A stretch of 64,000 bases of DNA from Diplonema japonicum. Taxonomy: Eukaryota > Protista > Euglenozoa: Diplonemea. Below are positions 2,665-35,979 of the stretch, piece by piece. The notes under the pieces are model-generated. The model was not told where the DNA came from. It worked only from the letters and a program-made list of their open reading frames with translations, and made no database searches. A program made the position numbers and the translations under genes. The DNA lies in the NCBI GenBank assembly GCA_964019335.1, contig OZ025681.1, forward strand, positions 534,079 through 598,078, in the 5' to 3' direction. How positions within the stretch are numbered: the stretch's first letter is position 1; every line of letters starts with the position of its first letter.

Positions 2665-3038
2665 TTTATTTATTTTCTTTTTAAATATCCCCCCTTTCCC
2701 CCCTCCCCCCCCACTCTCTCCTTCTTTTTTGAGGAAATGAAAGGGGGGGTACTTTGTTTTAAAAAAAAAAAGAAAAAAATGGATAAAAAGGATTTTCTTT
2801 CTTTTTTTTTTTTGCGTTTCTTTTTTCTCGCGTTGTAGGGAAGGGTAGGGGATTTTTGAAGAGAAAAAAAAAGAAAAGAGAGGGGGGGGGGGGGGGGGGA
2901 AAGAGAAATGACGGTTCGATGGGGAGGGGAGGGGAAAGATAAACATGCAAACAGGCAAATAAAAAAAAGGAAGAAGAAAAAAAGATGTCTTTGAAGGGAA
3001 CCTGCAGTATGTGACAGGATCGCCTAACGACAATCAAC

Positions 3039-6000
3039 TCATCTAGTGTTTGATCCCTTCTGTCGTGGTAGTGCCTTAGGCCCGTCGTAGTATCTCATCA
3101 GCAGCTTGGGCGTGAAACCGACTAGCGAGTTGTTGAGGATGCAATGCGTTCGCAGTTGTTCCTCTAGGGTCGGGTGGGTTGCCTTCGGGGACGCGAAGAC
3201 CGGACGAGTGGAGTATCCAATGATGGAATGGCTGTGGAGCCCCAGGGTACGCAGTGAGTGTACTGACTTCTTAGTTTCTGCCGGAATCAGGTGATTCCCC
3301 GTTCCTGTTCTGTGTGCCCTGTCCAGGACGTTGAGGATTCTTCCGATTTTCCTAGCCCAGCATGCCAGGTCTTCACCACCCATGTGGATTCTCTCCGTTG
3401 CTATGAAGTCGACAGCAAGCTCCGCCTTGGACACTTGCCCTCCATCCTTGCCCCATTTCAGGGCACTCAGCCATTTGAGGACAAACGGGATCAGCCCCGG
3501 GAAGTACTTCTTCCCCAGCCCGTGCTTGTGATACCAAATGAGGGGTTTCGGTTCTAATAGGTTTCCCGGTTGGAATGGTCTTTTCCAGAAGTGCAGATTG
3601 TCGTATCTGACCTGCTTCTCGGTGTGCAGGCTCTCGAGTTTCCCCGCAATTTCCGCAAACATCAGGTGTAGTTCCTTGACACTTGTCAGGCTTATGTCCA
3701 TATCAGAGGTAATAATGCCGTGTAGTCGGGCGCAGCTTGGCCAGCTGACGTGGTCTTGCACCAGCCGAATGCGGTCAGTGTTGGTCGTTCTGCAGTCGGC
3801 GTGCGCTGGGCATTGCCAGATCGTATGTTGTAGTAGGGAGCTGGTCCCGTTCCCAATGTTATATGGTGTGCCACACCCCAGGCATTTCGTATGTGAGCCG
3901 TTCATGTCGCCGTAAGCTCTGGGGTGTAGGGGAAGCATCGCGCCCGCAATGGCACAAAGTATCCTCCTTGCTTTCTGTGGGTTGGTGGTCGTCACCTCGT
4001 TGTGGAGGAAGTTCGTTTTCTCCTCGTCAATGCCTGTTTCGACCCCCTGGTAGGTGTCTCGCTCTTCGGCCAGATCCTCACGTAGTTTGGCTTTCAGCAG
4101 CGTCCTGATCTCGTGTTTCAGGAGCTGTTTGCCTTGCGGTAGTATCTTCGTCTGGAAGTCCTTCCACCTTGACCCTATTTCTCGGAGCCATAGGTCTGCA
4201 TTGGCAAATGGTCCCATCGGAAATGATGGAGAGCCTTGATCCCTTGCTCTCCTGTACGCTTCCCAGCATGATATGAAAAGGGACTTGTTCGAATGTCGTG
4301 TGCAAAGTCGTCCCAGAGTAGAGATGGCCTTGTAGATCGCAGTAGAGTACGGGTCCAGGGTGTGTCCCTTATGGGCAATTCCCAGCAGGGCGCTGGAGGA
4401 GCGCATTGGGTTGCGGGCACCCCAGACGCAAAGAGTGATCCGCTTCTTCAATTTCTCCATCCAAGAGTCCGGGATCGGGTCGAACAGGATGCCGTAGAAG
4501 GCGGATGGCAGGATGTTCTCTGCGATGATCCGTACCTTGCGATCGTGGTATAGCCTAGTTGAGGCGAGGCGTTCTATTTCGGCCAGGGCTTTGTGGACCC
4601 TGAGTTATCCCTCCTGCTCGGCTGGAAGTAGATTTGTACTCCTAAGATTTGCAGACTACTGGTCGTGGCAAAGGTCTCTCCGTTCAACTTCACATTCCCC
4701 CGGTATTTGGGTTTCGTTCCAAATGACCTGGTCTTCTTCGGGTGTACGGTCATCCCCGTGAGCTTGCAAAGGCTGCCTAGTAGATTTACGGAACGCTGAA
4801 CCGCGGCCTCCGAGGTAATTGACGTGAAGTTAAGGTCGTCTGCATATGACACTGGGTGTGCGTTTCTTGGATTTGCCGTACATTTCTTGGTGAAGATGGC
4901 AAGGATTGCGTTGATGAAAACGGGCGAGATCGGGCATCCCTGGAGTATTCCATTCGTGGTTCGGAATGGAGCACCTACTCCCACGGGGAAACGTAGGCGG
5001 CGGATTAGGTCAGAGTAGATGGCCTTGATCGGTCTCAGGATGAGCTGGCTTAGGCCTAACCGATCGACCAGTTCGAACGTGAGTGCGTGGGGGACAGAGT
5101 CAAAGCATTTCTTGAAGTCGACCGAGAGACCCCAAAGGTGGTTGCCAGATACTTTTGCCAACTCCACACTGGTGCAGACCTTCGCGAGGAGGTCATCTGT
5201 GCTGTGTTCCGGTCTGAAGCCGAATTGGAGCGGAGTAATCCACTCCTCTTGCCATTCGAGGATGGCTGGTAGTCGTGCGCCAGCCCAGAGCCGATAGAAT
5301 GCGCTCGATACAGTAATAGGTCTGTGATCTAGCGGCTCTTCGGATTCTCCTTTCGGGATCATCGTAACAAGCGCGGTCAGGACTGCCTTTGGCCATCGTC
5401 CCTCATCCTCAATCCAGTTGTATAGGAAGATGAATCCCTCTAGCAGGGCATCTGGTAAGTGGGCGAGTTCGCAGAGCCTCCATCCATCAATCCCAGCGCA
5501 TTCCTGTTTCTCCTTCTTACTCAGCACTCTTCGCAGGTCTTCTAGCGTGATCGCGAGGTCGACCATGGGGTGGTGGGTGATCTGCGACCCAAAAGTTTCC
5601 TCAAAAGAATCAAAACTCGGCTCAGGGTGGTCCTCGTATTTGCGGAAGATGTGGCGCCATGCCGACCTGAAGGCTTGGTCTATCTCTTCGACTGAGGTCG
5701 AGAGGGTACCGTTCGTGTTTGCTGCAACTAGCTCTCTATTTGGCTTGTCCGTCACAAATTGCATAATCGCGCTCCGGTTCACCGAGAAACCCGAGTTCAG
5801 GTCCCTCCGTGCCTTCACGTTGCGCAGGATCTTCGAAGCGATGTCCATGTTCCGTTGTCGTGCCGTAACGTTCTCCCGAATCAGGTCTGCTTCCTTGACG
5901 ATGTTACCCTCGGAGAAGGTTTCCGGGTGGAACCGTAGGATCTTAATTGCCTTTGCCTTAATATTGTCCCAGCTCTTGCGTAGGTCATACGGCAGGGCCG

Positions 6001-7417
6001 GGTCTTTCAACAGTGGGACTCTCCGCACAATAGCGGCTGCACTCTGCCGGATTTTCTCAAGTGTTAGGTACTTTTTAGAGACTGCCCCAAATGCTGTCAT
6101 CGTAGACGGAGCCGCCGTCCTCCGCATGCTGGGGGTATTAATCACGCCTCTGCCAGAGTAGATCGAATTCTCCAGCTGCGCCGTTCCACTCAAAAGGTGT
6201 TTCTCGCAAGCAGAAGAAAGCTCTAAGAAAGCTGCATCCAGGTCCCCGTTGTCTTTCAGGGATCTCAAAGTAGGGAGAATGTCGCTGTACGGAGCGCGGT
6301 TCCGGGAGTCATGGAGAGGGATGATCTTCTTGGGTATACTGTACTGGAGTGAGGGCTCGTAGAATCTCGGCATATCGATTCTAATTACTAGTGCGCGGTG
6401 TGAGGGTACGCCAATGTCCAGAGTCTGGCAGTCGGTCAGCGCCATCGCAGCTGTCTTGTTCACCAAGATGTAGTCTGGCCTCGTCTTCGCTGTTGCAGTT
6501 ACGAAGGTAGGAGGGGCTTGTGTTCCATGTAGGCGCGATATTTTGTTCGAAGCGTCTGTCCAATGTTGAGAGAGGGCGTGCGAGAGGACCGGGGAGTCCA
6601 TTATCGTCGTGTTGAAGTCTCCTGTCACAATGACCGGAACGTCCCCCAGCTGAGCCGATCTCTGTAGGGTGTCGGATATTAGCGCCTCCCTATTTCTCTT
6701 GGCGTGTCTGGAGCCGTCGCTTACCTGGCAGTAGAGGGTGATAATGTGTAACCAGTCACGTTTCCCAATCGCGACTCTTACATGTACCCTTCGCGAGTTG
6801 GTGTTGTGGTCCTCGAAAAGGGAGGATTCCTTCTTAGCTGTCAGTTGCTTGTTCACCATAATTCCCACGCCTCCTCTTTGGGCGATTGAGGGGGATTCTG
6901 CACCTTTTGACACCTTCCCTTGTTGTGGGGGTCCCCAAAAGAGACGGTGTTCTTTTAGGAAAACGTCTTGCTTCGCTTCCTTGTCCATCATCCATTGCCC
7001 CGCTTGCGTAAGGGCGGTCTCTTGCAGGCAAATCACGTCAAACTCCTGTAGTTTGACCCTGTTCAGCTGATTTGGGAGGTTCGTCACGTTCACAGAGATA
7101 ATAGTGATTTCCTTCTTCCCCTTCTCGGGCCCCGGATTGGGGTGGACGTCACCGTGTGTCATGAGCCGTTTCCTCGCTTCTCGCGCAATGGACCGCTTCG
7201 ACCTTTTCATAATGAGGAAATGTGCCCGCGGGAGGTGGATTATTGCCAACGAGTAGATCAGATGATTGTTTTCGGTCGGGGAGCCGAACCAGTCGCAGGA
7301 GAGAGGGGCAAAGGGGCGTGGTGTGGCCGAAAAGGTTAGGAGGTCAATGATTGATAGACTAATAATGATGATGATGGGGAGGGATAGAATTTCCCCGAGA
7401 TGCCTCAGACCCTCCTG
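3039..7417 (-). CDS. Retrotransposon ORF2: 2A-like motif, AP endonuclease, reverse transcriptase, CxxC..H..C motif; -1 frameshift at about 4576-4603
   Basis: APE motifs SVNV, DVICLQET, VIVTGDFN, RPDYIL, PSHRAL. RT motifs IPKG, RPITV, QFGFRP, VDFKKCFDSV, GILQGCPISP, YADDL, ILGV. After the shift the frame continues LRVHKALAEIERL...MEKLKK...CLGCG...HTIWQCP. Confidence 0.93.
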
Positions 7418-9039
7418 TCAGATCTTTTGATTCTTGGGGCTCGGCGACGTCTGTGCGTGGGTCTCCGATTCACCCCTCTTCCGTGAGCTCTCGGCCCTGG
7501 CAGCCTCCGCCTGTGCTTTCTCCTGCGCCGCCCTTGAACTGGGGAATTCTGCCTCCGACAGCTTCACCCTATGCTGTTTCCCCCGGAAGCTCCTCTCGTT
7601 CTTGTTTGGTGCATCTTCCCGTGTCCAGTCCCTAATCGTCAGGGAATGAAGTTTTTCCCCCCTCGCAATAAGCCTGGCGGTGGGAGGGGTGGTGGCCCGA
7701 ACGAGCCATCTCGAACCTTCTAGTCTGTCCAAGTGGCTAATGGACCATCCACATCCTGCGAGGTCGTTCATCAAGTCACACGGGTGTTCCCAGCTGAGGC
7801 ACCCTTCCAGGATATATTTGTCCCCAGCCTTCCGCGCCGGGAGAAGTATGGGGTTGACCCTTGCCAGTACCTCGCTGCGGACTGCTCCTCTCGGTAGCAT
7901 TAGGGCCAGTCCGATCGGCGTTACCGTGAGTGAGGTGCCTATTGATGCTGTGGGGACATCGGCCGCCTTGATCCCCTTCTTCAACTGGATGACCTCCAGT
8001 CTGTCTGCAGCGAACGCGTGTGTCCAGAATACACATTGGTCTCCGATGCGACCAGCAGTCTAATCGCGTGCTCAGGGTCCACCCGTACCAGGGCAGAGGC
8101 GGTGTTGTTCTCGGTCGAGCGGTTGATCCTGAAGACGTTTTGCGGGGTTACCTTGAAGGGACCCTCCTTGTCTCGCGCCGCTAGAAGTGCCATTCTTTTA
8201 ATGGCATTGCCGTCCGCTGTTCGCTTCCACTGTGCAGCTGAGCAATGGTCCTTTGCAATCACTGCCTTGAGGATAACGGTCCCTTTGCTGTCCTTGGGAG
8301 GGGCGTCCATGGCTTGCGGTAGTACTTCGTCCCCCAGGACCCAGGTTTTCATAATGCCCCTCGAGGTTGGGGAGTCGGACTCGGTTCCACCAGAGAATGG
8401 TTGGGTGCTGATGATTTTGAAAGTCAGGCCGAGGGCCTTGAGGCGTGCGGAGAGTTGGACAGGGTCTGCGGGATTAAAATATATTCCTGTCGTGAGTTTG
8501 TCCGGGAGCGCGTTGTGTATCTGCATATCTCCCCAGTGCTGCTGGATCAGGGCTAAGGGGGGTTTGGCGGGGCCCGGTCTGCTCATCCAGTTGGTGGCGG
8601 CTCCAAGGTAGGACTTGGTGTTACCTCTTGAAGCCTTCCTTGGCGGGGTCCTCTTCTCGTTCGTCTTGGCGGTGGGTTGCTGCTGCTGACTATTCTTGCC
8701 TTGCTGCTTGTGCGGTTGTCCTTTAGGCTGTTGGTATTGTTGCTGCTGAACCTGTTGCTGTTGTTGTTGGAATTGTTTCTGGGGCTGATGAACTTGTTGG
8801 AGCTGCTTGAGTGGCGGCTGTTGCGTGTACGATTGTTGGGGTTGTGGTGAGGAATTTTGGAATTGCTGTTGTTGAACTTGGGCCTGTAGCGGAGTGGGCT
8901 GCTGGGGTGAGGACTTCTGTGCCATCTCGACCAGCTGCAGGATGCAGCCTAGGGTGGTCAGGACGAGGCTTCTGTTCTCCTCGGATAGTTCGCCTGCGAG
9001 CAGGCTCTGGGCTCTCTGGACCAGTTGATGGGGGTCCAT
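7418..9039 (-). CDS. Retrotransposon ORF1-like protein (Gln-rich N-terminus), interrupted by a -1 frameshift near 8042
   Basis: ORFs 7981..9039 and 7418..7984 overlap in the -1 frame. Adding one G at TCG-GAG-ACC restores ...LLVASGDQCVFWTHAF... Confidence 0.7.
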
Positions 9040-9108
9040 GTTAAGAGCGTGATGGGGGGAAGTGGAGTACGGAAAGGGGGTTGTGGGATGACGGAGTCGG
9101 TCGCTTTC

Positions 9109-9157
9109 TTACACTTACACTGTCACTGTCACTATTACTATCACTGTCACTGTTACC
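9109..9157. repeat. Degenerate hexamer tandem repeat (TCACTG/TTACAC/TTACTA) at the 5' edge of the retrotransposon
   Basis: ttacacttacactgtcactgtcactattactatcactgtcactgttacc. Confidence 0.6.
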
Positions 9158-10030
9158 GTATTTATACTGTTCTTTTCTTCCTGCTATTGTCGTCACTTCT
9201 AAACACTTGCTTGGATATATCCGGTTGTGGTCTGGTCAATATATTTTTTCTTTTCAAACCGTTCTACCTGGTTCCTTTATTGGCACGGTCGATACCAATA
9301 AAGTACAGAAACTGTAGCTTTAGAATCGTTGCTAAAAAAGGAAGAGAAAGAAAAAAAGAATACTGGCCTACTGGTGTGGGAGGAGTGGGGAGAGGGGATC
9401 TAGCGATAAAAAAGAGGTAAGGGCCCTGCCCCCCACCGGTATTCCAGTGGCCGAAGATTCATATCGATGAATTTAATCGCAAGTGAAAAGGTTGGCAACA
9501 AGTTTAACTACATCTTTAAAAAAAAAGGGGGTGACATCAACTAACAGAAGATGGTGCAAAAAAGGTGCGCATTTCTAGTCATTGTATCCCACTTTCTTTT
9601 TTTCTTTTCGTTTTTTTTTTCTTCTTCATTTTCGCAAAAAAGCATAAAAGAAATTATAAAAAAAAAAAAAAAAACAGGGAGTGGGCACTAAAGGTACTAA
9701 AAAGGAAGAGGGGGAGGGGGAAAAAAAAAGAAGGAAGTTTACCAAAGATTTGATTCAGAAGAAAAAGAACAAGAACACATTGACTTATTTGTTTCTCTTT
9801 TTATTTTATTTTTTTTATTACAGTTGGTCAAACCCGTTTGTGCGCACAAACAAAGAATAACCCTTGGCCTGTTCTTTTTAATAAAAAAAAAAACCCGGCA
9901 AAAAAAGAAGAAAAAAGAGAGAAAACGAAGGGGTTTTTCTCGTTTTTTTTTCCCCTAAAATCTTTTTTATTTCCTCGCATATGTTTTTTATGGCAGTCAC
10001 ACAGAGAAGAGAAGAAAAAAAAAAGAGAAA

Positions 10031-10501: not shown

Positions 10502-13500
10502 CTAATTCAAAAATATATCTTCCTTAGGAGGCGCACTCGGTGTCGGTGCTATGCCCATGTACTCTGGGCAGTTGGGAAGGGGTACTGACTTCCTTCGGGA
10601 GGACCTCCTAGAAGTGAGACGAGAGGGAATCGGCGAAGAGCGCATAGGTGCCGAGGGTAGACAGGCGCTGCTCTTTAAGTCGGGTGTGTAGCCATAGACA
10701 TCTTCTTGTTCCTCGGAAGCAAGCTGCCGTTTGACTGCGCTCTCTAGCCCAGCGTGCACCACCAGTGGGTTCGGGACATCTTCTTCGTCTTCCTGGTTCA
10801 GATGCTTCACTGTTTTGTTTTTCTTCCCCTTCCTAGTCTTGCACAGCATCGCTACAAAGAGCCCTGTGCACAGTCCCAGCCCTCCTGCCACGTACCACAG
10901 TGACAGCGCTGCACTGCTCCCCGTGCTGCAGGGCGGCTCGATCTCGCCCTCGAAGTCGTTCTGCAGGATGTCGTGCACATTGGCACACCCCTTCGCCTCC
11001 TCCACCTCCGCCACCTCTGGGAACACCGCCACCGTCGTGCTCCCGCTGCTGTCGACCGTCTCGTTGCAGCACGCCACCTTCCACCCCTTTTGTTCAAACA
11101 AAGCACGCTGCTCGCTGCAGGACACCCCCCGCACCTTCACCTGGAAGTTCCCGCAGGTGTTGGCCGGAGACGGCTCAGAAGTGGTGGGCTCGGGTGTCTC
11201 AGGGGCGATGGTAGGGGCGATGGTCTCAGGAACAGGCGCTGAGGTGTCAGGTGCTGGTGTCGCGGGTGCAGGAGTGTCGGGGGCTGGTGTCTTGGGTGCT
11301 TGAGTATCAGGTGCCGTCGTGTCGGGAGCAGAGGTGTCTGGTGGAAAGGTCTTCCCAGCCGGAAGAGGGGTAGGTGCAAGGGTGTCGGGGGCCGATGTCG
11401 CAGGTGCTTTCGTGTCAGGGGCTGGTGTCTTGGGTGCTTGAGTAACAGGTGCTGGTGTGTCAGGAGCAGAGGTGTCTGGTGGAAAGGTCTTCCCAGCTGG
11501 AAGAGGGGTAGGTGCAAGGGTGTCGGGAGCTGGTGTTGATGGTGCTTGCGTGTTAGGTGCTTCTGTACTCGGGGCTTGAGTATCAGGTGCAAGTGTGTCA
11601 GGGGCAGAGGTGTCTGGTGGAAAGGTCTTCCCAGCCGGAAGAGGGGTAGGAGCAAGAGTGTCAGGTGCTGGTGTCGCGGGTGCCGGAGTGTCGGGGGCAG
11701 GTGTCTCTGGTGCTTGGGTATCAGGTGCCGTCGTGTCGGGAGCAGAAGTGTCAGGTGGAAAGGTCTTCCCAGCTGGAAGAGAGGTAGGTGCAAGGGTGTC
11801 GGGGGCCGATGTTGATGGTGCTTGCGTGTCAGGTGCTTCTGTATTCGGGGCTTGAGTATCAGGTGCAAGTGTGTCAGGGGCAGAGGTGTCAGGGGCAGGT
11901 GTCTCTGGTGCTTGGGTATCAGGTGCCGTCGTGTCGGGAGCAGAGGTGTCTGGTGGAAAGGTCTTCCCAGCTGGAAGAGGAGTAGGTTCAAAGGTGTCGG
12001 GTGCAGGTGTGTCAGGAGCAGATGTGTCAGGTGCATTTGTCGGCTCAGCCGTAGGGGGAGCCGGGGTATCAGGGGCAGCTGTGTCTGGAGCAAGAGTGGG
12101 CTCTGCAGTGGGCGGAGCTGGCGTATCTGGTGATGAAGTTGGCTCTGCCGTGTCAGGGGATGGTGTGTCAGGAGCTGAAGTTGGCTCTGCCGTATCAGGT
12201 GCAGGTGTGTCAGGGGCGGGTGTGTCAGGAGCAGGAGTGTCAGGAGCTGAAGTTGGTTCTGCCGTGTCAGGTGCAGGTGTATCAGGGGATGGTGTGTCAG
12301 GTGCAGGTGTGTCAGGAGCGGGTGTGTCAGGAGCTGAAGTCGGCTCTGCAGTATCAGGGGCAGGTGTGGCAGGGGCAGCTGTGTCAGGAGCAGGTGTGTC
12401 AGGGGCCGGCGTGTCGGGTGCAGGTGTGTCAGGAGCTGAAGTTGGCTCTGCCGTGTCGGGGGCAGGTGTGGCCGGGGCGGGTGTGTCAGGAGCAGGTGTA
12501 TCAGGAGCAGTTGTGTCAGGAGCTGAAGTTGGCTCTGCCGTGTCAGGAGCAGGTGTGTCAGGGGCTGGCGTGTCAGGAGCAGTTGTGTCAGGAGCAGGAG
12601 TGTCAGGAGCTGAAGTTGGCTCTGCAGTATCAGGTGCAGTTGTGTCAGGGGCAGGTGTGTCAGGTGCAGGTGTATCAGGTGCTGGTGTGTCAGGAGCTGA
12701 AGTTGGCTCTGCCGTGTCAGGTGCAGGTGTGGCCGGGGCGGGTGTGTCAGGAGCAGGTGTATCAGGTGCTGGTGTGTCAGGAGCTGAAGTTGGTTCTGCC
12801 GTGTCAGGGGCAGGTGTGGCCGGGGCGGGTGTGTCAGGTGCAGGTGTGTCAGGAGCAGTTGTGTCAGGAGCTGAAGTTGGCTCTGCCGTATCAGGTGCCG
12901 GCGTGTCAGGTGCAGGTGTGGCAGGTGCAGGTGTGTCAGGAGCGGGTGTGGCAGGTGCTGAAGTTGGCTCTGCCGTGTCAGGTGCAGGTGTGGCCGGGGC
13001 TGGCGTGTCAGGAGCAGGTGTATCAGGAGCAGCTGTGTCGGGAGCTGAAGTTGGCTCTGCCGTGTCAGGAGCAGGTGTATCAGGGAATGGTGTGTCAGGG
13101 GCGGGTGTATCAGGAGCGGGTGTGTCAGGAGCTGAAGTTGGCTCTGCAGTATCAGGTGCAGGTGTGGCAGGGGCGGACGTATCAGGAGCAGGTGTATCGG
13201 GGGCAGGTGTGGCAGGAGCACTTGTCGGCTCAGCTGTAGGGGGAGCTGGGGTATCGGGTGCCGGCGTATCAGGGGCAGGTGTGGCAGGAGCAGGCGTGTC
13301 GGGGGCAGGTGTGGCAGGAGCAGGTGTGTCGGGGGCTGGTGTATCAGGTGCAGATGTGTAAGGAGCACTTGTCGGCTCAGCCGTAGGAGGAGCTGGGGTA
13401 TCGGGTGCCGGCGTATCAGGGGCAGGCGTGTCAGGAGCAGGTGTGGCAGGGGCGAGTGTATCAGGTGCAGGTGTGTCAGGTGCAGGTGTATCAGGGGCAG

Positions 13501-13999
13501 GCGTATCTGGAGCAGGTGTGTCAGGTGCAGGCGTATCTATCTTGTACCATAACCTGACCCTTTCTGAGCTGCAGCACTTAACCCACTTCCCTTCGGTTGT
13601 ATAGAACTGTCTCCACTCACCCGAGGGCACGTCTTGTATCCACAAGTGCTTAATGCGGAGCCCGTCCGTGCTGTCGGAGACAAGCTTGATGCTGTAAATC
13701 TCTTCGTAGCTGAAAGGGGAGTCGAAGACAGCAAAGGTCTTCACCTCACTAGCACTGAGGGGGCCGAGGGTCATCCAGTACCAAGAGGGCTGATTGTATT
13801 TGCGGAGGAAAGCCCTGACGTCACCATTGGTACCTGCATTCTTCTCAACACTCCAGCTCTCGACTTGTATGCGGAAGTACATAGGAGGAATGGGTGCTGC
13901 TGTGTCAGGTGCATTTGTGTCTGGGGCAGCAGTGTCAGGTGGCACTGTGTAGGCGGGAGTGGCGAGGCACAGGAAGAAGGTAGCGAGAGCGCGTAACAT
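10502..13999 (-). CDS. Type I membrane surface protein: signal peptide, PLAT/LH2-like domain, long PDTPA mucin stalk, Cys-containing juxtamembrane module, TM, tail with PSAP motifs
   Basis: Signal MLRALATFFLCLATPAY; PLAT-like NAGTNGDV...DGLRIKHLWIQD...W; about 780 aa of Pro/Thr/Asp/Ala repeats; TM LSLWYVAGGLGLCTGLFVAML followed by KTRKGKK. Confidence 0.85.
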   Translation of the reverse strand: MLRALATFFLCLATPAYTVPPDTAAPDTNAPDTAAPIPPMYFRIQVESWSVEKNAGTNGDVRAFLRKYNQPSWYWMTLGPLSASEVKTFAVFDSPFSYEEIYSIKLVSDSTDGLRIKHLWIQDVPSGEWRQFYTTEGKWVKCCSSERVRLWYKIDTPAPDTPAPDTPAPDTPAPDTPAPDTLAPATPAPDTPAPDTPAPDTPAPPTAEPTSAPYTSAPDTPAPDTPAPATPAPDTPAPATPAPDTPAPDTPAPPTAEPTSAPATPAPDTPAPDTSAPATPAPDTAEPTSAPDTPAPDTPAPDTPFPDTPAPDTAEPTSAPDTAAPDTPAPDTPAPATPAPDTAEPTSAPATPAPDTPAPATPAPDTPAPDTAEPTSAPDTTAPDTPAPDTPAPATPAPDTAEPTSAPDTPAPDTPAPDTPAPATPAPDTAEPTSAPDTPAPDTPAPDTPAPDTTAPDTAEPTSAPDTPAPDTTAPDTPAPDTPAPDTAEPTSAPDTTAPDTPAPDTPAPATPAPDTAEPTSAPDTPAPDTPAPDTPAPDTAAPATPAPDTAEPTSAPDTPAPDTPAPDTPSPDTPAPDTAEPTSAPDTPAPDTPAPDTPAPDTAEPTSAPDTPSPDTAEPTSSPDTPAPPTAEPTLAPDTAAPDTPAPPTAEPTNAPDTSAPDTPAPDTFEPTPLPAGKTFPPDTSAPDTTAPDTQAPETPAPDTSAPDTLAPDTQAPNTEAPDTQAPSTSAPDTLAPTSLPAGKTFPPDTSAPDTTAPDTQAPETPAPDTPAPATPAPDTLAPTPLPAGKTFPPDTSAPDTLAPDTQAPSTEAPNTQAPSTPAPDTLAPTPLPAGKTFPPDTSAPDTPAPVTQAPKTPAPDTKAPATSAPDTLAPTPLPAGKTFPPDTSAPDTTAPDTQAPKTPAPDTPAPATPAPDTSAPVPETIAPTIAPETPEPTTSEPSPANTCGNFQVKVRGVSCSEQRALFEQKGWKVACCNETVDSSGSTTVAVFPEVAEVEEAKGCANVHDILQNDFEGEIEPPCSTGSSAALSLWYVAGGLGLCTGLFVAMLCKTRKGKKNKTVKHLNQEDEEDVPNPLVVHAGLESAVKRQLASEEQEDVYGYTPDLKSSACLPSAPMRSSPIPSRLTSRRSSRRKSVPLPNCPEYMGIAPTPSAPPKEDIFLN

Positions 14000-15659
14000 C
14001 CCCCCTGCTTCTTAACACTCCCTCCCCTCCCCACCTTTATCTGGGTTTGTATGAGTTTTGCGTCTGGTCAAAGTTGACCCATCGATCGTCAGTTAAAAGA
14101 AGAAGAAGAAGAAAGAAGAAACTAAGGGGGGGAGAGGGGGGTTCTTCCTTTTTTGTTCGTCATCTTTCGGTTTCCTGTTTTCTTTCTTTCTTTTTTTTTT
14201 TTTTTTCTGGGAGGAAAAAAAAAAAAAAAAAAAAAGAACAGAAAATAAAGAAGACATGACAAAGGAGAAGGAAAGAAGAGGAAAAAAAAAGAATCGCATA
14301 CACAAGAATCAACTGAAAAGAGCAACAAAGAATATGTGAGAAATAATGATCAAAAAAAAAAAAAAAAAAGAAAAGAAAAGAAGAAAAATAGCTAGCAATA
14401 GTCTGACTTTTTTTCTGTGATCGAAAAGGAAAAATCGTTGAACAAAAAAAAAAGCTTTGACTAGATGGAGGAAAAAACTGAAAAAAGAGAACTGAAAACT
14501 GAAAAAGAGAAAAGAGAAAGATCACGCACAAAGGGCTCCCGAGCACACTGCAAAATCCCTTTTTTTCCCAGCAGATTATAAGTACATTGGACCGCTGATT
14601 TTTTTTTTTTTTTTTTTTTTTTTTGGTAATTGTACGGGCTGAAATATAAGAATTTCGCCTTAGACAATTTTTCAAATATACGGTCATAAATTTATATGCA
14701 CATACGAAGAAAGAAGAAAAAAAGAAAAAAGAAAAACTGAAAACTTTTTTTTTTTGAAGAGGGGGAAAAAAGAAGAGTCGGTCTTTAGCAATACATGCAT
14801 GCTATCACTACTCTTTTTCGCCCCTACAAGAAGCTAATCAGTACTTGTTAAATACAAATAAAAGGGGGGGGGGGACTGCACAAACAATCATAAACATATG
14901 CTAAAGGAGGTTCCGAGACGCTGCATTCATCTTCTCAACCTCACCATTAACAATAACTGGTATAAAAAAAAAAAACTCATAAAAGAAGACTCAAAGTAGT
15001 AAAAAGACAATAAAAAATATCCCCCCCCCCACGTGAGGTTCTTAAAAACCCTGAAAGAAATTGCAAAAAAAAAAAAAAGATCTTTTTCATCATTAGATAA
15101 GCACAGTGTTGTAGGATGCAAAAATGTAAAATGCATGGCCCTCACCAAAAAATAATTTATTAAATAATTTTATGGAAAAAAAAAAAAGGGAAAAAAAAAA
15201 CGACTTAGCCCAGATGTGCAATGGCCCTGGTACCAAATACTCAGCAAGAGAGAGATGATTCACCAAATTCGATGGTAACCCACGGTATGTGTAAGATAGA
15301 TGAGTTCACTTTATTCACCGTTTTTTTCAATTGGTTTTCTTTTTTTTTCTTTTTTTTTTTTTTTTATTTTTTTTTTTTATTTATCCGTTTCACTGTTCCC
15401 CTTGTCGCGTTTTGGAAAATTTTCAGCGGAGTTATTTTTCTTTTTTTTTTTCTTCTACCCGAGAAATAAAAAATAAAAGAAGAAAAAAAAAAGATTTTTT
15501 TAACTGCCCTCCGCTGGAGAGAACAAAAAAAAAAAAAAAAAAAGAAAAATGGAAATACGACTTAACAAGAGGAGCGAAAAAGTGTTAAATGGGGTACAGA
15601 ATTTAGCCCTTGTCCCGAGAACGTGATTTTATTCCACGACATTGACCCATAGTTTTTTC

Positions 15660-18600
15660 TCAATTTAGATAAATGGCATCGCATGGCGCGCTGGGCACGG
15701 CACACATAGGGGGCTGTGACCCGGAGCCACCCGTCTCTGTGGAGTTGGGGAGCATGATGGACTGCCTTCGTGACGTCGATTGTTGCGAGTACCTGCGGTG
15801 CGTAAATGGGGCAGAGGGCACCTGCTCTTGCTCGCTGGGGGAAAGCACTGCGCCGGCAGCAGGATCCACAACATCAGCAGGATTCACGACTCTAGCAGAA
15901 TCTGCGATTTCACCGTTCAAAACGACTGTTGGGTTAGCTTCTTGCTCCTCCACGTCAAGCTGCATCTTGACTGCCCTCTCCAGTCCTTCGTGCACCACCA
16001 GTGGGTTCGGGACGTCCTCTTCGTCTTCATTCTCCTCTTCCAGCGTCTTCGCCTTCTTCTTCATTTGCATTTTGCACATCATCACCACAAACAGCACCAC
16101 AATAACAGCCCCCGCGACAAGCATGATGTAGGAGAGTGGGATGGGCATCGCAGACGAGCTCCCCGTGCTGCAGGGCGGCTCGATCTCGCCCTCGAAGTCG
16201 TTCTGCAGGATGCCGTGCACATTGGCACACCCCTTCGCCTCCTCCACCTCCGCCACCTCTGGGAACACCGCCACCGTCGTGCTCCCGCTGCTGTCGACCG
16301 TCTCGTTGCAGCACGCCACCTTCCACCCCTTTTGTTCAAACAAAGCACGCTGCTCGCTGCAGGACACCCCCCGCACCTTCACCTGGAAGTTCCCGCAGGT
16401 GTTCGCCGGAGACGGCTCAGAAGTGGTGGGCTCGGGTGTCTCAGGGGCGATGGTAGGGGCGATGGTCTCAGGAACAGGCGCTGAGGTGTCAGGTGCTGGT
16501 GTCGCGGGTGCAGGAGTGTCGGGGGCTGGTGTCTTGGGTGCTTGAGTATCAGGTGCCGTCGTGTCGGGAGCAGAGGTGTCTGGTGGAAAGGTCTTCCCAG
16601 CCGGAAGAGGGGTAGGTGCCATCGTATCAGGAGCAGGCGTGCTGGGTGCAGGTGTTTCGGGGGCAGAGGAGTCTGGTGGAAAGGTCTTCCCAGCCGGAAG
16701 AAGGGTAGGTGCAAGGGTGTCAGGTGCTGGTGTCTCGGGTGCTTGAGTATCAGGTGCCGTCGTGTCGGGAGCAGAGGTGTCAGGTGGAAAGGTCTTCCCA
16801 GCCGGAAGAGGGGTAGGTGCAAGGGTGTCGGGTGCTGGTGTCGCGGGTGCCGGAGTGTCAGGGGCTGGTGTCTTGGGTGCTTGAGTATCAGGTGCCGTCG
16901 TGTCAGGAGCAGAGGTGTCAGGTGGAAAGGTCTTCCCAGCCGGAAGAGGGGTAGGAGCAAGAGTGTCAGGGGCTGGTGTCGCAGGTGCCTTCGTGTCGGG
17001 GGCAGGTGTCTCTGGTGCTTGAGTATCAGGTGCTGGTGTGTCAGGAGCAGAGGTGTCTGGTGGAAAGGTCTTCCCAGCTGGAAGAGGGGTAGGTGCAAGG
17101 GTGTCGGGTACTGGTGTGTCAGGAGCAGATGTGTCGGGTACTGGTGTGTCGGGAGCTGTTTTTTTTTTTTTTTTTTTCTTCCCGTCAAACACAATATGGT
17201 TAAAAGTGTAGTAAAGGAAGGCTGGCACAAAAGTATTAATATGCTTGAACCCTTTTTATAAAGGAAAAGTGTAAAGGATGGCTGGCACAAGAATGCCCTG
17301 AAGGGTAATGTCCATAAGTAAAATGTTCAGAAAAGAAGCTTTGCAGATCGACTCCCTCCGAGTTATCTTACAATAGTTATAAAGGAAGATGAAATCATGA
17401 CACACCTTTCGTATCTGGTGCAGAAGTAGGCTCCGAAGTATCAGGGGCTGGGGTATCAGGGGAACTTGTTGGTTCCGCCGTCATGGGAGCAGGTGTGTCA
17501 GGTGCTGGTGTGTCGGGGGCAAGCGTATCAGGGGCAGTTGTGTCAGGAGCAAGAGTGGGCTCTGCAGTGGGCGGAGCTGGCGTATCTGGTGATGAAGTTG
17601 GCTCTGCTGTGTCAGGGGCGGGTGTGTCAGGAGATGATGTGTCAGGGGCCTGCGTATCAGGAGCAGTTGTGTCAGGAGCTGAAGTTGGTTCTGCCGTGTC
17701 AGGTGCAGGTGTGGCAGGGGATGGTGTGTCAGGAGCGGGTGTAAATGGGGCGGGCGTCTCAGGAGCAGGAGTGTCAGGAGCTGAAGTTGGCTCTGCCGTA
17801 TCAGGTGCAGGTGTATCAGGGAATGGTGTGTCCGGAGCAGGTGTGTCAGGAGCAGTTGTATCAGGAGCTGAAGTTGGCTCTGCCGTATCAGGTGCAGGTG
17901 TGTCAGGGAATGGCGTGTCGGGGGCGGGCGTATCAGGAGCGGGTGTGTCAGGAGCTGAAGTTGGTTCTGCCGTATCAGGAGCAGATGTGTCAGGGAATGG
18001 TGTGTCAGGGGCGGGTGTGTCAGGAGCAGCTGTGTCAGGAGCTGAAGTTGGCTCTGCCGTGTCAGGTGCAGTTGTGTCAGGTGCAGGTGTGTCAGGGGCA
18101 GGCGTATCAGGAGCAGGTGTATCAGGAGCTGAAGTTGGCTCTGCCGTGTCAGGAGCGGGTGTATCAGGAGCAGATGTGTCAGGTGCAGGTGTGTCAGGAG
18201 CAGGTGTGTCTGGGGCTGGTGTATCAGGAGCGGGTGTATCAGGGGCTGGGGTATCAGGAGCAGGTGTAGCAGGGAATGGTGTGTCCGGAGCAGGTGTATC
18301 AGGAGCAGGTGTGTCGGGGGCTGAAGTAGGCTCAGCCGTATCAGGTGCAGGTGTATCCGGAGCACTCGTGTCAGGCGCTGCAGTCGGTTCGGCTGTAGGT
18401 GGCGCCTGTGTGTCTGGTGCTGAAGTGGGTTCAGCTGTAGGGGGTGCAGGAGTAGCGGGAGCAGGTGTGCTTGGCGCGACTGTTGGCACGGCCGTCGGGG
18501 GTGCAGGGGTATCTGGAGCGGGCGTAAGAGGTGCTGGCGTGTCGGGAGCAGGAGTATCGGGAGCAGGAGTATCGGGTGCAGGGGTGTTAATCGTAAACCA

Positions 18601-18999
18601 CAACTTGACCCTGTCGGTCTTGCAGCACTTTAGCCACTTGGAGCCATCAATGTAGAACTGTTTCCAGACCCCACTCGCCACGTCCTCGACCCAAATGGTC
18701 TCGACGCGGAGGCCATCGGCCCCCAAGGCGACCAGCTTGACGCTGTAGATCTCATCGATGGTATAGGGGCACCCGAACACGTCATGTGTCTGCGTTTCGC
18801 CTGCCGCGATGTCCCCGATGGTGGACCAGTACCACGAGGGCTCGTTCCACTTCCTTAAGTACACCTTGAAGTTGTCCTTCGTGCCTGAGTACTGATTAAC
18901 ACTAATGTTGATGCGGAATCTGAGAGGCGGCGGGGTTGTCGCTGTGGAAGAAGCAATGATCAGGAGCAGGGTGTAGACAGCAAGGAAGCAGCGTGACAT
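15660..18999 (-). CDS. Paralogous PLAT-like mucin-stalk type I membrane protein, 2 exons (17406-18999, 15660-17155), 1029 aa
   Basis: The two ORFs join through a GT-AG intron (AAAG|GTGTGT...AAACAG|CTCCC), restoring PDTK-A-PDT in frame. Same architecture as 10502-13999. Confidence 0.85.
17156..17405 (-). other. 250-nt spliceosomal intron (phase 1)
   Basis: GTGTGT donor, TTTGAC branch-like motif, A-run, then CAG acceptor. AT-rich, and removal restores the frame. Confidence 0.85.
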
Positions 19000-19626
19000 T
19001 TTATTTTATAAAACGCTGTGCCCCCCTCCCCCTCCCCGACCTTTGTTGTTGAATAGGATACACCCCACATCTGCAGCAGAGCTCGTTTTGCCAGGTCACG
19101 CGGAATTTTAAATGTGACTTGGTTTTAGTGGGCCATGCAGTATGTGACACAGCGGACTCCCGTGTCTGAAGCTTCGCCCTGAAGCCTCCGAAGTCTGTGG
19201 TCCCGTAGAACGTAAAAGTGAAGTGGCAAAGAAAGCTGAGCTTTGAAACAGGGAGGGCAAAGAAAGAAGCAATGAACATCAACTGGAGTATGCCGTGGGA
19301 GGTATGCTTCACAAGCACAAGCCTGGTGGAACTACCATGTAATGGACTCTCCGTTGAGGGCAGTGCCAACCGGTCTCCACCCCGTTGAGGTTTCTACGTG
19401 TACGGCTTAAGAACGAGAGTTTCCCCCCCAAACCACAATTACAAGGAAACCACCACTGGGTGGTCCCCCCTAAAATTAAAAAAGAATTCTTTCAAGAAAA
19501 AATGAATAAAAAAAGTCAATGTGTGTCGCGTGAAGATGGTGAGGCTAGGTGCCTGATGAGAAGATAGGTCAACCGAACGACGGGACATGGTTGGTCTTTT
19601 TCTTTTTTTTTTTTTTTTTTTAACTC

Positions 19627-27092: not shown

Positions 27093-27493
27093 AGGTGACA
27101 GGAACGCCTAACGACAATCAACTCATCTAGTCCGTCGTGGCCATTGATGGACGTGGGGATGCTTCCGATTCTCATAGCCCAGCATGCCAAGTCTTCACCA
27201 CCCATGTGGATCCTGTCCATTGCTATGAAGTCGACAGCAAACACTTGCCCCATTTTAGGGCACTCAGCCATGAGGACAAACGGGATCAGCCTGAAGCTGC
27301 ACTGGAGAGGAGTAACCCACTCTTCTTGCCATTTGAGGATGGTTGTCGCGTGCCGGCCCAGAGCCGATAGAATGCGCGAAGAAAAAAAAAAAGGTGGGGT
27401 GGGGGAAATATCTACACTATTACTTTGTGATTATCGACGTGGCAGGAGTGGGAAGGGGTAAGGGGGGAATGTTTGATTCAGGTGGAGAGAGAA
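24930..27493. repeat. Segmental duplication, copy 1 (direct repeat of about 34034-37085)
   Basis: Colinear near-identical blocks (gtgtgagtcgaggga..., ctgagaagaagcgtagc..., gtttgattcaggtggagagaga) with differing insertions. Confidence 0.9.
27095..27377 (-). mobile_element. Multiply deleted derivative of the 2984-9108 retrotransposon
   Basis: Colinear patches matching about 3011-3046, 3217, 3327-3417, 3431-3496 and 5214-5303; absent from duplication copy 2. Confidence 0.85.
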
Positions 27494-29291: not shown

Positions 29292-32200
29292 TCATATCTT
29301 CATGGTAGAATAGTCGTCAGCAGGGCTGTACGCCGGTTGCCCGACTTGTACCCCGTTCATGGGCACGTTCATAGGCACATTGCTCTCTGCCCTCTCGACG
29401 CCCCCTAGGAACTCCTGTATGTTCACACCTTTGCTGCGGTGGTTCTTTACCATTATGAGCGCCACACCTGCACACACAGCAAGGACCCCGCCCACCACTC
29501 CCAGCACCCACCAAGGGAAGGACGAGCTGCTGTCCTCCTCAGGGACAGCCTCCGGGACGAGCCCCCCACCGACAACGGGTGCCGACCCATTCCCACCCGT
29601 CGTGTCAGGCGCGTCAGTGGCAGGTGCATAGGTCTGCCCGTCAGGCAGAGGTGTCGGTGCAGCGGTGTCGGGTGCTCCTGTCGCAGGGGCGTCGGTCTTG
29701 GGAGGGTAGGTCTGCCCTTCAGGGAGGGGTGTCGGTGCGACGGTTGCAGGGGCACTTGTTGCTGGTGCCATCGTGTCTGGGGCGGTTGTCGCAGGTGCAC
29801 CCGTTGCAGGTGCGTCGGTCTTGGGAGGGTAGGTCTGCCCTTCAGGGAGGGGTGTAGGTGCAACAGTTGCAGGGGCACTTGTCGCTGGTGCCATCGTGTC
29901 CGGGGCAGTCGTCATGGGTGCACCCGTTGCAGGTGCGTCGGTCTTGGGAGGGTAGGTCTGCCCGTCGGGGAGGGGTGTAGGTGCCACCGTGGCGGGTGCC
30001 GTGGTATCGGGGGCCCCCGTCTCGGGAGCACCGGTCGCGGGTGCCATTGTCGGTGCTGCCGTGTCAGGGGCGGGCGTCTCCGGCGGGTAGGTTGCCCCTG
30101 CAGGGAGGGCCGTTGGCTCCGCTGTGTCCGGTGCCTGCGTCACTGGTGCCGAGGTCTCGGGGGCCCCTGTCCTGGGAGCACTGGTCGCGGGTGCCATCGT
30201 TGCCGGAGCCGTCGTGTCAGGGGCGGGCGTGCTCGGTGGGTAGGTTGCCCCTGCTGGGAGCGCTGTCGGGGCGACCGTGTCAGGGGCAGGTGTCGAGGGT
30301 GCCATCGTGTCCGGTGCTCCTGTCGCCGGAGCTGTTGTCGAAGGTGCCGATGTCACAGGTGCAGAAGTGTCGGGCGCTGTCGTGTCAGGGGCGGGGGTGT
30401 CAGGTGGGAAGGTCTTCCCTGCGGGGAGCGCCGTCGGGGCGACCGTGTCAGGGGCAGGTGTCAACGGTGCCGTGGTGTCAGGGGATGTCGTGTCGGGGGC
30501 ACTTGTCGAAGGTGCCGAAGTGTCAGGAGCACCAGTGGCAGGTGCCATCGTGGCCGGTGAAGTGGTATCAGGAGCCGTCGTGTCAGGGGCGGGGGTGTCA
30601 GGTGGGAAGGTCGTTCCCGCAGGGAGCGCAGTGGGGGCGATAGTGTCAGGGGCAGGTGTCAACGGTGCTGTGGTGTCAGGAGATGTCGTGTCAGGTGCTC
30701 CAGTACTCGGTGCTGACGTGCCAGGGGCCGCGGTGTCAGGAGCAGTAGTGTCAGGAGCCACTGTCACAGGAGCACTCGTGTCAGGTGCTGGTGTTGCAGG
30801 AGAGACTGTCGCTCCAATTGGGAGGGGTGTTGCAGGAGCACTTGTGTCAGGAGCTGAAGTCATAGGTGCAGAGGTATCTGGAGCAGTTGTATCAGGTGAG
30901 GGGGTGTTGGGTGGATTCGTGTTTGGAGCAGGTGTGCCCGGCGAAGGGGTATCAGGTGTAGGTGTGTCTGGTGCTGTTGTGTCGGGAGCAGTGGTGTCGG
31001 GTGTCGGGGTGTCAGGGGAAGGTGTGGCAGGCGCATCAGTGGTTCCGCTGCTGCATGTAGTGAAGCTGCCAGCAATGAGGACCCATTGGTTCCACGAGGC
31101 AGGGAAGTAACAGATCTTGTACTCAGTGTTGTCCGCCAGGCCCGGGAGGGTTCCTGGACTCCACTCAGTCGCAACCCCTTCGACCTTCACAAGGGAGCCG
31201 ACAGAAGCGGAGCAGGCATTCAAAGCCGCACACTGCGTCTCCGCATTGCTGCAGTCGGTAGCTGTGTTCGGGACCACAGCAATCCTGTCAGAAGTCGCGA
31301 GCTCGTCCGTCCCAGGATAGAAGTGGAACACGGGGGCATCCACCCCTGGCTTCGGGCAAGTCGGCTTCGTTGAGAACAGAGGGTCACGGTGATCGCACAG
31401 CAGGGACAGGGTGTCGATGTAGCAGCCACTCGCACCGCTGTTCACAGCCATCTGGACTTGTGCCACAGCACCAAAGGTGGACGGGATCTTGGGTGCGATG
31501 GTTTGTGCCGCCCCATCCAAGGAGGTCGTGATGGCAAGGTTCTGCCAGTTCAGCCCGAGATCCAGCTTGTACCAGGTGTTCGCTGAGGTCGTCCCAAAGT
31601 ACTCGATCGAGTTGGAGTTGATCTTCACACCGAACTGCGAGAACACCCCGATGTACACACGGATGCTGTCACCGCTCGAGGAGGTAAGGGTGACAGAGAG
31701 CTGCGAGGTGGCGCTCGAAACACGTGCCCAGAAGCTCAAGGTGTTGGGCTGGATCCCCCCAGCAGGTTCGCTGTAGAGGTAGCCTGCCTGCTTCATGGCG
31801 AGGGAGCCCGCCCCCTCCTTCTTCACCGAAGTAGACACACCCGCAACAGAGGAGCTCACAGAGCCTGGGTCGTCGTAAGCACGGTTCACACTGTGGTGGC
31901 ACTCTCCGGGAATCTGGAACTCCACGTCCTTCACAGACCAGATGGGGGGCTGCCCGCTCGTGAACATGCTCCCCTTCAGGTAAAGGTCCACAAGCTCAGT
32001 CGCAGCCGTGCGGAAGGTGGAAGCCGCCTTCAAGGGACCAATCGTCACCACCTGACCGTTGATGTTCACAAGGGAGGTGTCGATCATGCTGGAGCGCAGA
32101 CCGTTCCACCCCGTGGTGGAAGGGTAGTCCGCAATCATCGCGTCGATGATGGCCTGCTTGTTCGCTGTCGTGTCCACCCAGGAGTCGTAGTCTCCGACGA

Positions 32201-34010: not shown

Positions 34011-34033
34011 TTTACTTTTTGTGCTAACTCCTA

Positions 34034-35979
34034 AAGTGTGAGTCGAGGGAACACTAAGAAGCCAAGGTGCTCGAATTACCAAGCAAGACTGTCATGCGAA
34101 ACTGCACCATCTTCTCTCTCGCTCTCGTTGCGGCATTGGGATGACGCACAAGGCTCGCACTACCCTTGCAGTATTCAAAAGAGGAGGCTCAAGGCCTCAG
34201 AAGTGCCAGGCACGAAATACTGTTCTAAGTTCACTCCGTCTCAAAATAGGAACGAAGAGAGCATACGGCCATCAGACTTTCACCCGGTTGCCGAGGATAA
34301 AAGGAGTAGATATGCGCAGTGCAACACTTCTTGTACACGGGGTGCTGAAGGGACGATGGAAAGAATAAAAAAGGGGGTAAGTGGGAGTGGGAATGAGTGG
34401 CGGGCTGGGTGGAGTGATGAACAAAAACAAAAAAGAAATTTAAATCTCTTCCCCCCCCCCCCCCCCCGTAGTTGTTCTTTTTTTTTATTTGGGTAAACAA
34501 CGTTTTTTTCAGTAAAACTTTCTTTTTTTTTTCTTTGTTTTTCTTCTTCTTCCCTTTGGAAAAAAAAAAAAAAAAGGTTTTTTGATTTTTCACCACTTAG
34601 GCTACTGATGACAGTGGATACCGAAAACTTAAGTTACAAGTTTTAGTTTCAAAGTGACTGATAATCACAAGTAAATTGGAGTTTGAAAAACGGTGGGGAG
34701 CAAACTTTCCAGCTGAGAAGAAGCGTAGCTACTGAAAGAATGGTGGGTTCCGAACTTCCCAAATATCCCCCCCCCCCCCCCCCCACAAGAAAAGAGTTAC
34801 TGAAAACGTTGATTTACCCCCTTTTTATTATGATCTCACAAAAAAGAAGAAAGAAAGAAAAAAGCAGAATCCACATGGAAAGTGAGGTGAGTTTGTTCCG
34901 GAGCATACACAACTTACTATCGTAATTGCTCTGGAAAATAAGGTTCACCAGCCTTTCGTGTTTCATTTGCTTGTTTGAATCAATATGAGAAAAAGCAAGT
35001 AACAACGGAGGAGAGGGGAAAAGAGAAAAATGAGAAAGACACATTATTTTAAAGGGGGCCATGGGTTCTCCTGATCCCTGTAGAGACAAAACATTCTTTT
35101 TTTTTTTTTTTTTTTTTATTTAACTCCATCAAAATTTTCGTGGGTGGGAGTGAAAATAAAAATTCACTTTATTTCACTCCTGACTTTATTTTCACGCTCC
35201 GGCTTCTAAAAGAAATTAGGCCCAGGAGTGAAAAATTCTGATAGCGTTAAAATAAGAAATATTATTTCACTCCTGGGCTAATTTAAGCAAAACCCTCCAA
35301 AAATTCCTACCAAGGTTCCTTTGGGATAGGCAAGAACCCGACTGCACAAGAGGCGGACGCAGCAGGGTTCACCCCCTTCCAAGAGCCATACGAAAAGGAG
35401 TGGGCACGCTTTTGTGTGTTTCATAATTATAGGAAGGAAAAGAAGGGCCCGTCCGAAAGAAGAGGATTCTATTCTACGACGTGAAGCAAGGCCTCCTGCC
35501 GTTCAGTCCGGGCGGCTTATTCAAGGCTAAACTCGGTTGTGAGGAGGAATTACAACAAGCAGTTGCAAGACCACCCCCGACTAAAGGTCCCCCTCAAGAG
35601 GTTCCAAGAAAGCGAGTCAACAAAAAAGGCGAACATCTTTACCCAAGAGCAAATAACAGAATTCTTTAGCACCGAGGTATGGCATCGTCCGCCACGCTTA
35701 TGCAGCGTTGATGTTTGCAGGAAGCATGTGCACTACCGAGGCACATATCCGACACCTGTTGTAATTGGTACCACCTGTACCTCCCACCCACTCAAATTTT
35801 GCTGTCGTTAAATAAAATATCGTATTTGTGAATATAAGATTGATGATTTCACTTGTGGTGGCAGTTTTGACTCGTTAAACGTTATAACACTCGCTTCGCT
35901 CGTGATATAACCGTCATTACTCATCAAAACCACTGCCACCACGCGTGAAATCATAGGATCTTATATTCACTAAATAAAT

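Follow-up and report, generated by a model that had tools for sequence, protein, structure and literature searches.

The way in which long interspersed nuclear elements (LINEs) translate the second open reading frame (ORF2) of a bicistronic RNA is still regarded as unclear, as is the function of the 2A peptides that some of them carry (bioRxiv 2026.06.17.732966). 2A-like peptides precede the apurinic/apyrimidinic endonuclease (APE) domain in L1Tc, in Ingi and in five metazoan clades, mostly in elements without an ORF1 (PMC3708506), which bears out what a preliminary description of the present locus had stated about L1Tc/Ingi and other elements that lack long terminal repeats (non-LTR elements). 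Readthrough of an ORF1 stop has been suggested from consensus sequences for the Group 3 non-LTR elements of Paramecium tetraurelia, and the available text of that report gives no experimental test (PMC5405496). Here we analyse a LINE of the diplonemid Diplonema japonicum, on the minus strand of a 64-kb stretch of contig OZ025681.1 (positions 534,079 to 598,078, hereafter the window), in which an in-frame UGA, a hydrophobic linker and a 2A-like peptide follow one another between ORF1 and the endonuclease. L1Tc and Ingi have a single ORF and lack ORF1, and this element carries an ORF1 of 540 amino acids (aa).

Layout of the element and its ORF1 stop codon

The element is about 6.3 kb long, extends from about 9331 to 3011 in window coordinates and lies in the intergenic tract 5' of a host glycosyltransferase gene. 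It is an APE-type non-LTR retrotransposon, with an N-terminal APE and a reverse transcriptase (RT) domain in ORF2, both above the Pfam cut-off. After the ORF1 stop the minus-strand frame stays open for 947 codons (7417 to 4577) and runs through an AUG-free linker to RLMTHGDVHPNPGP and then into the endonuclease. The preliminary description had placed the TGA at 7420-7418 with an open frame leading straight into the APE domain, and both the positions and the translation are confirmed. Its separate "ORF1b" has to be abandoned: in three of four sequencing runs the contigs have an additional base at 8042, a position that the fourth run does not cover. This makes ORF1 a single frame, and what separates "ORF1a" from "ORF1b" is the loss of one base, in this copy or in the assembly. 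A programmed frameshift between the two was rejected on the same evidence. The second frame break of this copy, in ORF2 at about 4604-4574 between the RT and the C-terminal part, is a private loss or an assembly error.

The TGA and the linker are the majority sequence of the family. Contigs of six of the seven runs (X1, X2, X3, X4, X6 and X8, from three studies) show no differences in either, and the seventh run (X11) has no cover at the stop. Positions 7170-7520 lie wholly within one contig, again with no differences, in all four of four runs (three studies, two runs being from one sample), and the stop is bridged unchanged in two further runs. All runs come from the same organism, one of them may be the source of the assembly, contigs lose rare variants, and contig depth is no measure of copy number. 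The TGA-bearing contigs depart from the window sequence at 8042 and at about five other places, so they do not simply represent this copy, or the window contains errors at those places. Since the TGA and linker are identical in six of seven runs, we conclude that the TGA is not a copy-specific nonsense change; a sense codon in other copies, which the preliminary description had named as decisive against its proposal, was not seen. The family thus carries a single, fixed in-frame stop, the sister family's own stop being outside the pieces seen.

The closest proteins come from the transcriptomes of Diplonema ambulator and D. japonicum. In an APE-domain tree of 28 rows, which holds only unnamed and Diplonema relatives and no named clade references, the element groups with two D. 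ambulator elements (100/99 support). ORF1 is 43% identical across 167 aa to a stand-alone D. ambulator protein of 503 aa (P0011), and the two end at a similar place (34 versus 40 residues past the last aligned block). ORF1 gave only leads under 0.9 in the ESM Atlas. Dispersed copies with a common 3' end and 5' truncation are represented by a sister family and by a derivative at 27095-27377 on the minus strand. This derivative consists of 280 nt, joining an RT fragment, a C-terminal fragment and the 3' end within poly-T, and is internally deleted and 5'-truncated.

Linker and 2A-like peptide

The linker is probably translated, judging from how its sequence varies. The sister family is about 82-87% identical to the element, and 28 of 34 tallied differences fall at third codon positions; this tally covers 34 of 40 listed rows (six were left out as same-family or untranslated region, UTR), with 226 more rows outside it. 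In three of four runs the sister family has TTG in place of the first ATG, which is thus not conserved. Linker pieces, assigned to the sister family by similar depth, are ungapped against the linker at 7173-7261 and, in one run, at 7319-7386, two of their nine differences being among those listed. Frame-disrupting indels, another outcome that the preliminary description had held to be adverse, are absent from these pieces and from the family's own contigs, which show 0 differences. Identity to the sister family is 85-88% in linker parts and 81-85% in coding regions, and in the 5' UTR (9132-9225) no sister contig adds depth in X3 and X4. Upstream of the first Met, end-anchored peptide similarity reaches P 0.0007 for P0001 and P 0.01 for P0003. 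It is this similarity to D. ambulator elements, together with the TTG of the sister family, that makes the linker look translated.

The hydrophobic peak is not explained by chance (P 0.0006 against base shuffles) and rests partly on an ATC/ATT repeat. Segments with KD17 of at least 1.9 also precede the motif in L002, L006, L008, L029, L030, P0003, P0023 and P0030; there is none in L003, P0001, P0004 and several shorter proteins, and none by eye in L007. In four D. ambulator relatives the first Met is found either 55, 101 or 162 residues ahead of the core's end or within the APE domain. A working 2A would make the N-terminus of ORF2p independent of the route by which ribosomes enter, which would explain this drift.

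The core DVHPNPGP (7150-7127) is the only NPGP-type match in the six frames of the window. It departs from the class A StopGo core (D/G/C/N)(V/I)ExNPGP at position 14 (p14), where it has H, and equals a rare functional variant with this residue. The replacement of E by H had been pointed out in the preliminary description; it is indeed there, and DVHxNPGP is a documented functional StopGo variant. The motif is not new in LINEs, as GD(V/I)HPNPGP is already listed in eight of them (PMC12338488, supplement). A natural StopGo sequence with H at p14 gave more than 95% separation in one viral context (PMC12846837), and in P2A one change alone is tolerated among those at D12, E14 or N16, namely E14H (score 0.85), which F2A does not tolerate (bioRxiv 2026.09.24.754024). 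G at p11 and L7 are present, and the upstream hexapeptide RLMTHG is less L-rich than the LLMRCG or MLLRCG of relatives.

The motif is conserved across the clade. A 2A-type core precedes the APE domain in 17 of 28 protein representatives, 12 with H (P0003, for example, has GDVHPNPGP) and 5 with E, a ratio biased by the H-bearing query. In the APE tree sister rows switch between E and H, NPGP and G-D-V/I are kept, and among the cores counted the only exchange is E/H at p14. Two RNA-virus-like polyproteins carry LLxxSGD(I/V)HPNPGP after the polymerase domain (L059:1387-1412 and L060:2501-2526), and we count this H core, GD(I/V)HPNPGP, in favour of skipping. Taken together, the peptide is likely to skip, at least in part.

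Several relatives have other arrangements in this region. Tandem 2A-like motifs precede the APE domain in P0023, P0030 and L030:450-830, and in P0023 they flank a signal-like hydrophobic peptide. A (V/I)GEA(S/R/L/A)xPG(P/K) motif replaces the 2A core in L006:2140-2180, L007:440-470, L029:310-335, L002, P0026, P0033 and P0034, and may be a hitherto undescribed class of StopGo, or a decayed form. Three Diplonema ORF2 proteins (P0005, P0014 and P0015) have an N-terminal OTU-like domain (PF02338 on P0005) and no clear 2A, and P0014 and P0015 retain a GN(S/L)PGP relic.

Table 1. Features of the Diplonema japonicum LINE in window coordinates
Feature	Position	Strand	Details
Spliced-leader (SL)-like head	9275..9331	-	36-nt SL exon match 9331-9296, GT 9295-9294; hairpin 9303-9275
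ORF1	7418..9039	-	ATG 9039 to TGA; ~540 aa; Q-rich N-terminus; broken here by one-base loss at 8042
ORF1 stop TGA, candidate readthrough site	7418..7420	-	context ATC TGA CAG GAG
In-frame linker	7211..7417	-	69 codons, ATG-free in all frames; CTG 7408 and ATT 7390 among its in-frame near-cognate codons
Hydrophobic segment ILSLPIIIIISLSIIDL	7340..7390	-	KD17 2.57; predicted membrane anchor or signal peptide
Possible splice acceptor AG	7359..7360	-	most pyrimidine-rich upstream tract between SL head and APE start
First in-frame ATG (MKRSK)	7208..7210	-	codon 70; TTG in sister family, Leu in P0001
2A-like peptide ...RKRLMTHG-DVHPNPG/P	7127..7210	-	predicted skip between 7130 and 7129
Second ATG (MTHG), within 2A-like peptide	7160..7162	-	kept in sister family
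APE endonuclease domain of ORF2	6455..7051	-	Pfam PF03372, residues 123-321, E 3.7e-10
Reverse transcriptase domain of ORF2	4634..5356	-	Pfam PF00078, residues 688-928, E 4.5e-23
ORF2 C-terminal part	3039..4604	-	other frame after break; like C-terminal part of P0001, P0002 (by eye)
Element 3' end	3011..3047	-	common to short derivative at 27095-27377

Routes from ORF1 to ORF2

We propose that ORF2 is reached by readthrough and then released by skipping. Most ribosomes would end at the UGA and give plain ORF1p, and a small share would insert an amino acid there and read on. These would translate the hydrophobic linker and skip at NPG/P, yielding an ORF1p-anchor-2A protein and a free ORF2p (endonuclease-RT) predicted to start PEKGKK. 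A low ORF2:ORF1 ratio would thereby be set without a protease. We assume that UGA-C leaks at a basal rate in the percent range or lower, because no stimulator was found. From the sequence we put the probability of the whole chain, readthrough with linker translation and skipping, at roughly one in three; that readthrough of the UGA is the route to ORF2 is a tentative reading at nearly even odds. Of the readthrough-then-StopGo scheme in the preliminary description, the fixed stop and linker, the coding-like character of the linker and the functional H variant speak for it, whereas readthrough itself is not established.

Distant relatives provide part of the support. Among 38 related loci, seven close ones reach upstream of the APE domain and were scored. 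Three of them were left out, L002 and L030 for their many stops and L029 because its contig shows no upstream stop, leaving four. In three of these four, ORF2 is open back to an in-frame TGA (TGA-C in L006 and L007, TGA-T in L003), and the motif is not preceded by a Met in L003 and L007. A frame that is both shared and open in three of four loci has P 0.02, which rises to 0.07 when L002 and L030 are scored as misses. The linker's sharing of ORF1's frame adds a factor of 1/3.

A number of observations weigh against this proposal. The preliminary description had called the TGA-CAG context leaky; UGA-C is present, but UGA-CAGGAG contains no CUAG and no CARYYA and so fits neither strong motif (UGA-CUAG, CARYYA). 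Folding of 40-210 nt 3' of the stop showed nothing stable (z between -1.41 and +0.19), and a stimulator hairpin was rejected on this result. None of the known stimulators (CARYYA, CUAG, CGG/CUA with a stem-loop, or a pseudoknot) was found, with folding that did not cover long-range pairing or pseudoknots. A weak search for longer ORF2 proteins found no ORF1-ORF2 fusion among 856 candidates. The openness of the 69 codons is in itself weak evidence (P 0.11 for mononucleotide and 0.24 for dinucleotide shuffles), end-anchored similarity of the linker to P0004 fails (P 0.38), aligned locally, the linker shows no significant match to relatives (P 0.10-0.32), and the sister family's pieces stop short of the ORF1 stop. 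Among the distant loci, if the linker is coding under every model, then frame alone counts, and three of four at 1/3 gives P of about 0.11 by hand arithmetic; TGA-C in two of three relatives is no significant enrichment (P 0.15). L008, which has a TAG and a Met close by, is not in frame, nor are the more distant L015 and L017; the frames upstream of the stop in L003, L006 and L007 were not matched to ORF1; and P0003 has a Met about where the element has its TGA, directly before the signal-like segment. As for skipping, the peptide has R at p6, where P2A and F2A need L, and RLMTHG is not L-rich; an E-to-H peptide of a Crack-clade LINE had very low activity (PMC3708506); and highly active peptides occur in only 43 of 580 retroelement contigs.

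Other searches around these junctions can be noted briefly. P0013, a D. japonicum protein of 1916 aa, was considered as a fusion and rejected, as the 580 residues before its motif have no BLAST match to ORF1. In L006 an ORF (1091-2100) ends in a Cys-rich segment followed by TGA-CTG, and its linker holds 333 in-frame codons with several hydrophobic segments before the APE domain, in an ORF2 frame of 2463 codons. No relatives were found in viral or metagenome contigs by N-terminal alignment scan, nor in viral contigs by RT alignment, and no further junctions in the 4 loci translated out of 20 extra ones from four metagenome-assembled genomes (MAGs). These prokaryote MAGs (G001-G004; L029-L033, L039-L058) each match the LINE proteins 4 to 29 times, a sign of eukaryotic contamination.

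A close rival, nearly as likely as readthrough followed by skipping, is that ribosomes terminate at the UGA and restart at a near-cognate codon downstream (CTG 7408 or ATT 7390). The hydrophobic segment would then be an N-terminal signal peptide, with skipped ORF2p staying cytosolic and the unskipped product going to the endoplasmic reticulum. Restart accounts just as well for the coding-like linker and for an AUG that is not conserved, and translation of human L1 ORF2 is AUG-independent and needs a completed upstream ORF (PMC4091050). P0003 offers a counterpart in that it starts with Met and a signal-like segment about at the position of this stop, as does P0023, where two 2A-like motifs around the hydrophobic segment would give a free N-terminus; dual targeting by a signal plus StopGo is described for sea urchin proteins (PMC12846837). 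Restart would not, however, require the frame of ORF1 (1 in 3), in which three of four relatives lie, nor UGA-C, which makes up 18% of the stop triplets in the element.

Slightly less likely, but also a close rival, is a start of ORF2 at the AUG at 7210 (or 7162), reached by scanning from the ORF1 stop or provided by SL trans-splicing or cis-splicing. An ORF2-only mRNA would be joined at the AG at 7360-7359, and cis-splicing would use the element's own SL-GT head. Essentially all mRNAs of D. papillatum are SL trans-spliced (PMC10161547), and the element itself carries SL and GT. No other AG between 9296 and 7001 has as pyrimidine-rich an upstream tract as the one at 7360; the 148 nt after 7359 are free of AG (P 0.009), and no ATG comes before 7210. 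A start at 7210 leaves 27 residues, which suffice as a 2A peptide, and the 2A lies near the ORF2 N-terminus in most LINEs. StopGo needs about 20-30 residues, and the 11 left by a start at 7162 are too few. The preliminary description had offered both internal ATGs (MKRSK and MTHG) as restart sites; the second is kept in the sister family, but the first is TTG there, and peptide similarity extends upstream of 7210. Being C-rich, the pyrimidine tract differs from the T-rich one at 9360-9332 and may only reflect Ile, Leu and Ser codons, while the hydrophobic segment is kept in GC-rich relatives. No SL loose end or joint at 7358 appears in four runs, which are probably DNA, judging by their long records.

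It is also conceivable, though improbable, that readthrough occurs and the H-type peptide mostly does not skip, pausing ribosomes or lowering output, with ORF2p staying tied to ORF1p and the membrane anchor. Besides the atypical hexapeptide and the Crack and retroelement activities cited above, 59% of tested ORF2p 2A-like peptides lowered protein abundance (bioRxiv 2026.06.17.732966). Conservation speaks for skipping, in that NPGP and G-D-V/I are kept across the clade and p14 varies only between E and H, the one change tolerated in P2A. Finally, the view that the TGA arose by nonsense mutation in a dead copy of an element with one ORF, to which the two frame breaks and few private differences of this copy might point, is largely refuted, as the majority contig of six runs has the TGA and not the 8042 break, and the stand-alone ORF1 relative ends at the same place.

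Returning to readthrough followed by skipping, we speculate that the minority ORF1p isoform could be tethered to membranes and seed ribonucleoproteins. This would be a three-step cassette of a protist LINE clade, made up of a readthrough dose, an anchor on minority ORF1p and an H-type StopGo that frees the endonuclease-RT beside it, and we regard it as doubtful.

Flanking features and comparison with known systems

The SL-like head matches a listed "Euglenozoa 14" SL, whose species the listing leaves unnamed, in 34 of 36 letters by eye, and is probably the 5' end of the element. This is the only SL match in the window, where 0.02 are expected, and a predicted 12-bp hairpin (9303-9275) spans the exon/intron joint. 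With these features the head looks more like an SL RNA gene in its 5' part than like a trans-spliced mRNA. Contigs of this family reach 9292, and 9244-9292 is common to other high-depth variants. One of the high-depth variants has GTGTC after the SL exon, and some join the ORF1 start via a different 5' UTR. The SL pattern was found neither in viral contigs nor in the fetched related loci. SLACS, CZAR and CRE elements have a restriction-like endonuclease and SL sequence at both flanks. The element described here has an APE domain and its single SL match at the 5' end only.

T-rich tracts flank the element at 9360-9332 and about 2995-2960 (minus strand) and look like an imperfect target-site duplication of ~27 nt; the 5' tract ends in TAG like a host trans-splice acceptor. 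The adjoining gene encodes a GT92 glycosyltransferase (2664-1063). Elsewhere in the window, tandem paralogues encode long proteins with signal-like N-termini on the minus strand (10502-14011, 15663-19005, 29295-34091, 38951-45238 and 50827-61218). Some have TPAPD-type repeats, and three have in common an N-terminus with a near-identical 2.3-kb block. An Rfam scan of 7000-9600 gave nothing near the gathering score, and no tRNA genes were found in the window.

The compact 300-nt cassette lends itself to experiment, since readthrough, non-AUG restart, splicing and StopGo each predict different outcomes of point changes. If both readthrough and skipping occur, the 2A of a two-ORF LINE would serve to strip ORF1p and anchor from ORF2p, H-type StopGo would extend to diplonemids, and the three-step cassette would be a protease-free counterpart of retroviral Gag-Pol on an RNA with its own spliced-leader mimic.

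Each part of the cassette has a precedent. No paper describing the serial combination of stop, anchor and 2A was found in the open literature. The 2A-bearing LINEs (L1Tc and Ingi, and the Rex1, L2, Crack and CR1 clades) likewise have the 2A-like peptide directly before the APE domain. They mostly lack ORF1 (exceptions are CR1-26_BF, CR1-53_BF and CR1-1_LG), whereas here a full ORF1 precedes the peptide, which stands behind a UGA and an AUG-free hydrophobic linker. Group 3 of Paramecium tetraurelia resembles the element in being an APE-RT LINE with ORF1 and ORF2 in one frame; it belongs to a ciliate clade, and the available text mentions neither a 2A nor a hydrophobic linker (PMC5405496). In the pseudoscorpion Cordylochernes scorpioides, ORF1p-2A-ORF2p fusions also place a 2A-like peptide between the domains of one frame (bioRxiv 10.64898/2026.06.17.732966). 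No stop is described in the available part of that report, and the element here has, ahead of its 2A, a UGA and a hydrophobic segment as well.

Human L1 shares the bicistronic RNA, a low ORF2 output and an ORF2 that does not require AUG (PMC4091050, PMC5860796, PMC5972666). Its 63-nt spacer has two in-frame stops, which exclude readthrough in human L1, and no 2A, in contrast to the one stop and the 69-codon open, conserved linker found here. The layout is also that of the gammaretroviral gag-pol and of plant virus and alphavirus replicases, in which an in-frame stop between structural and enzymatic genes sets their ratio (PMC3542737). Viral readthrough uses UAG-G with a pseudoknot, UAG-CARYYA, or UGA-CGG/CUA with a stem-loop, none of which is present in the element, and, compared with gag-pol, release of the enzymatic product would here be brought about by StopGo and not by a protease.

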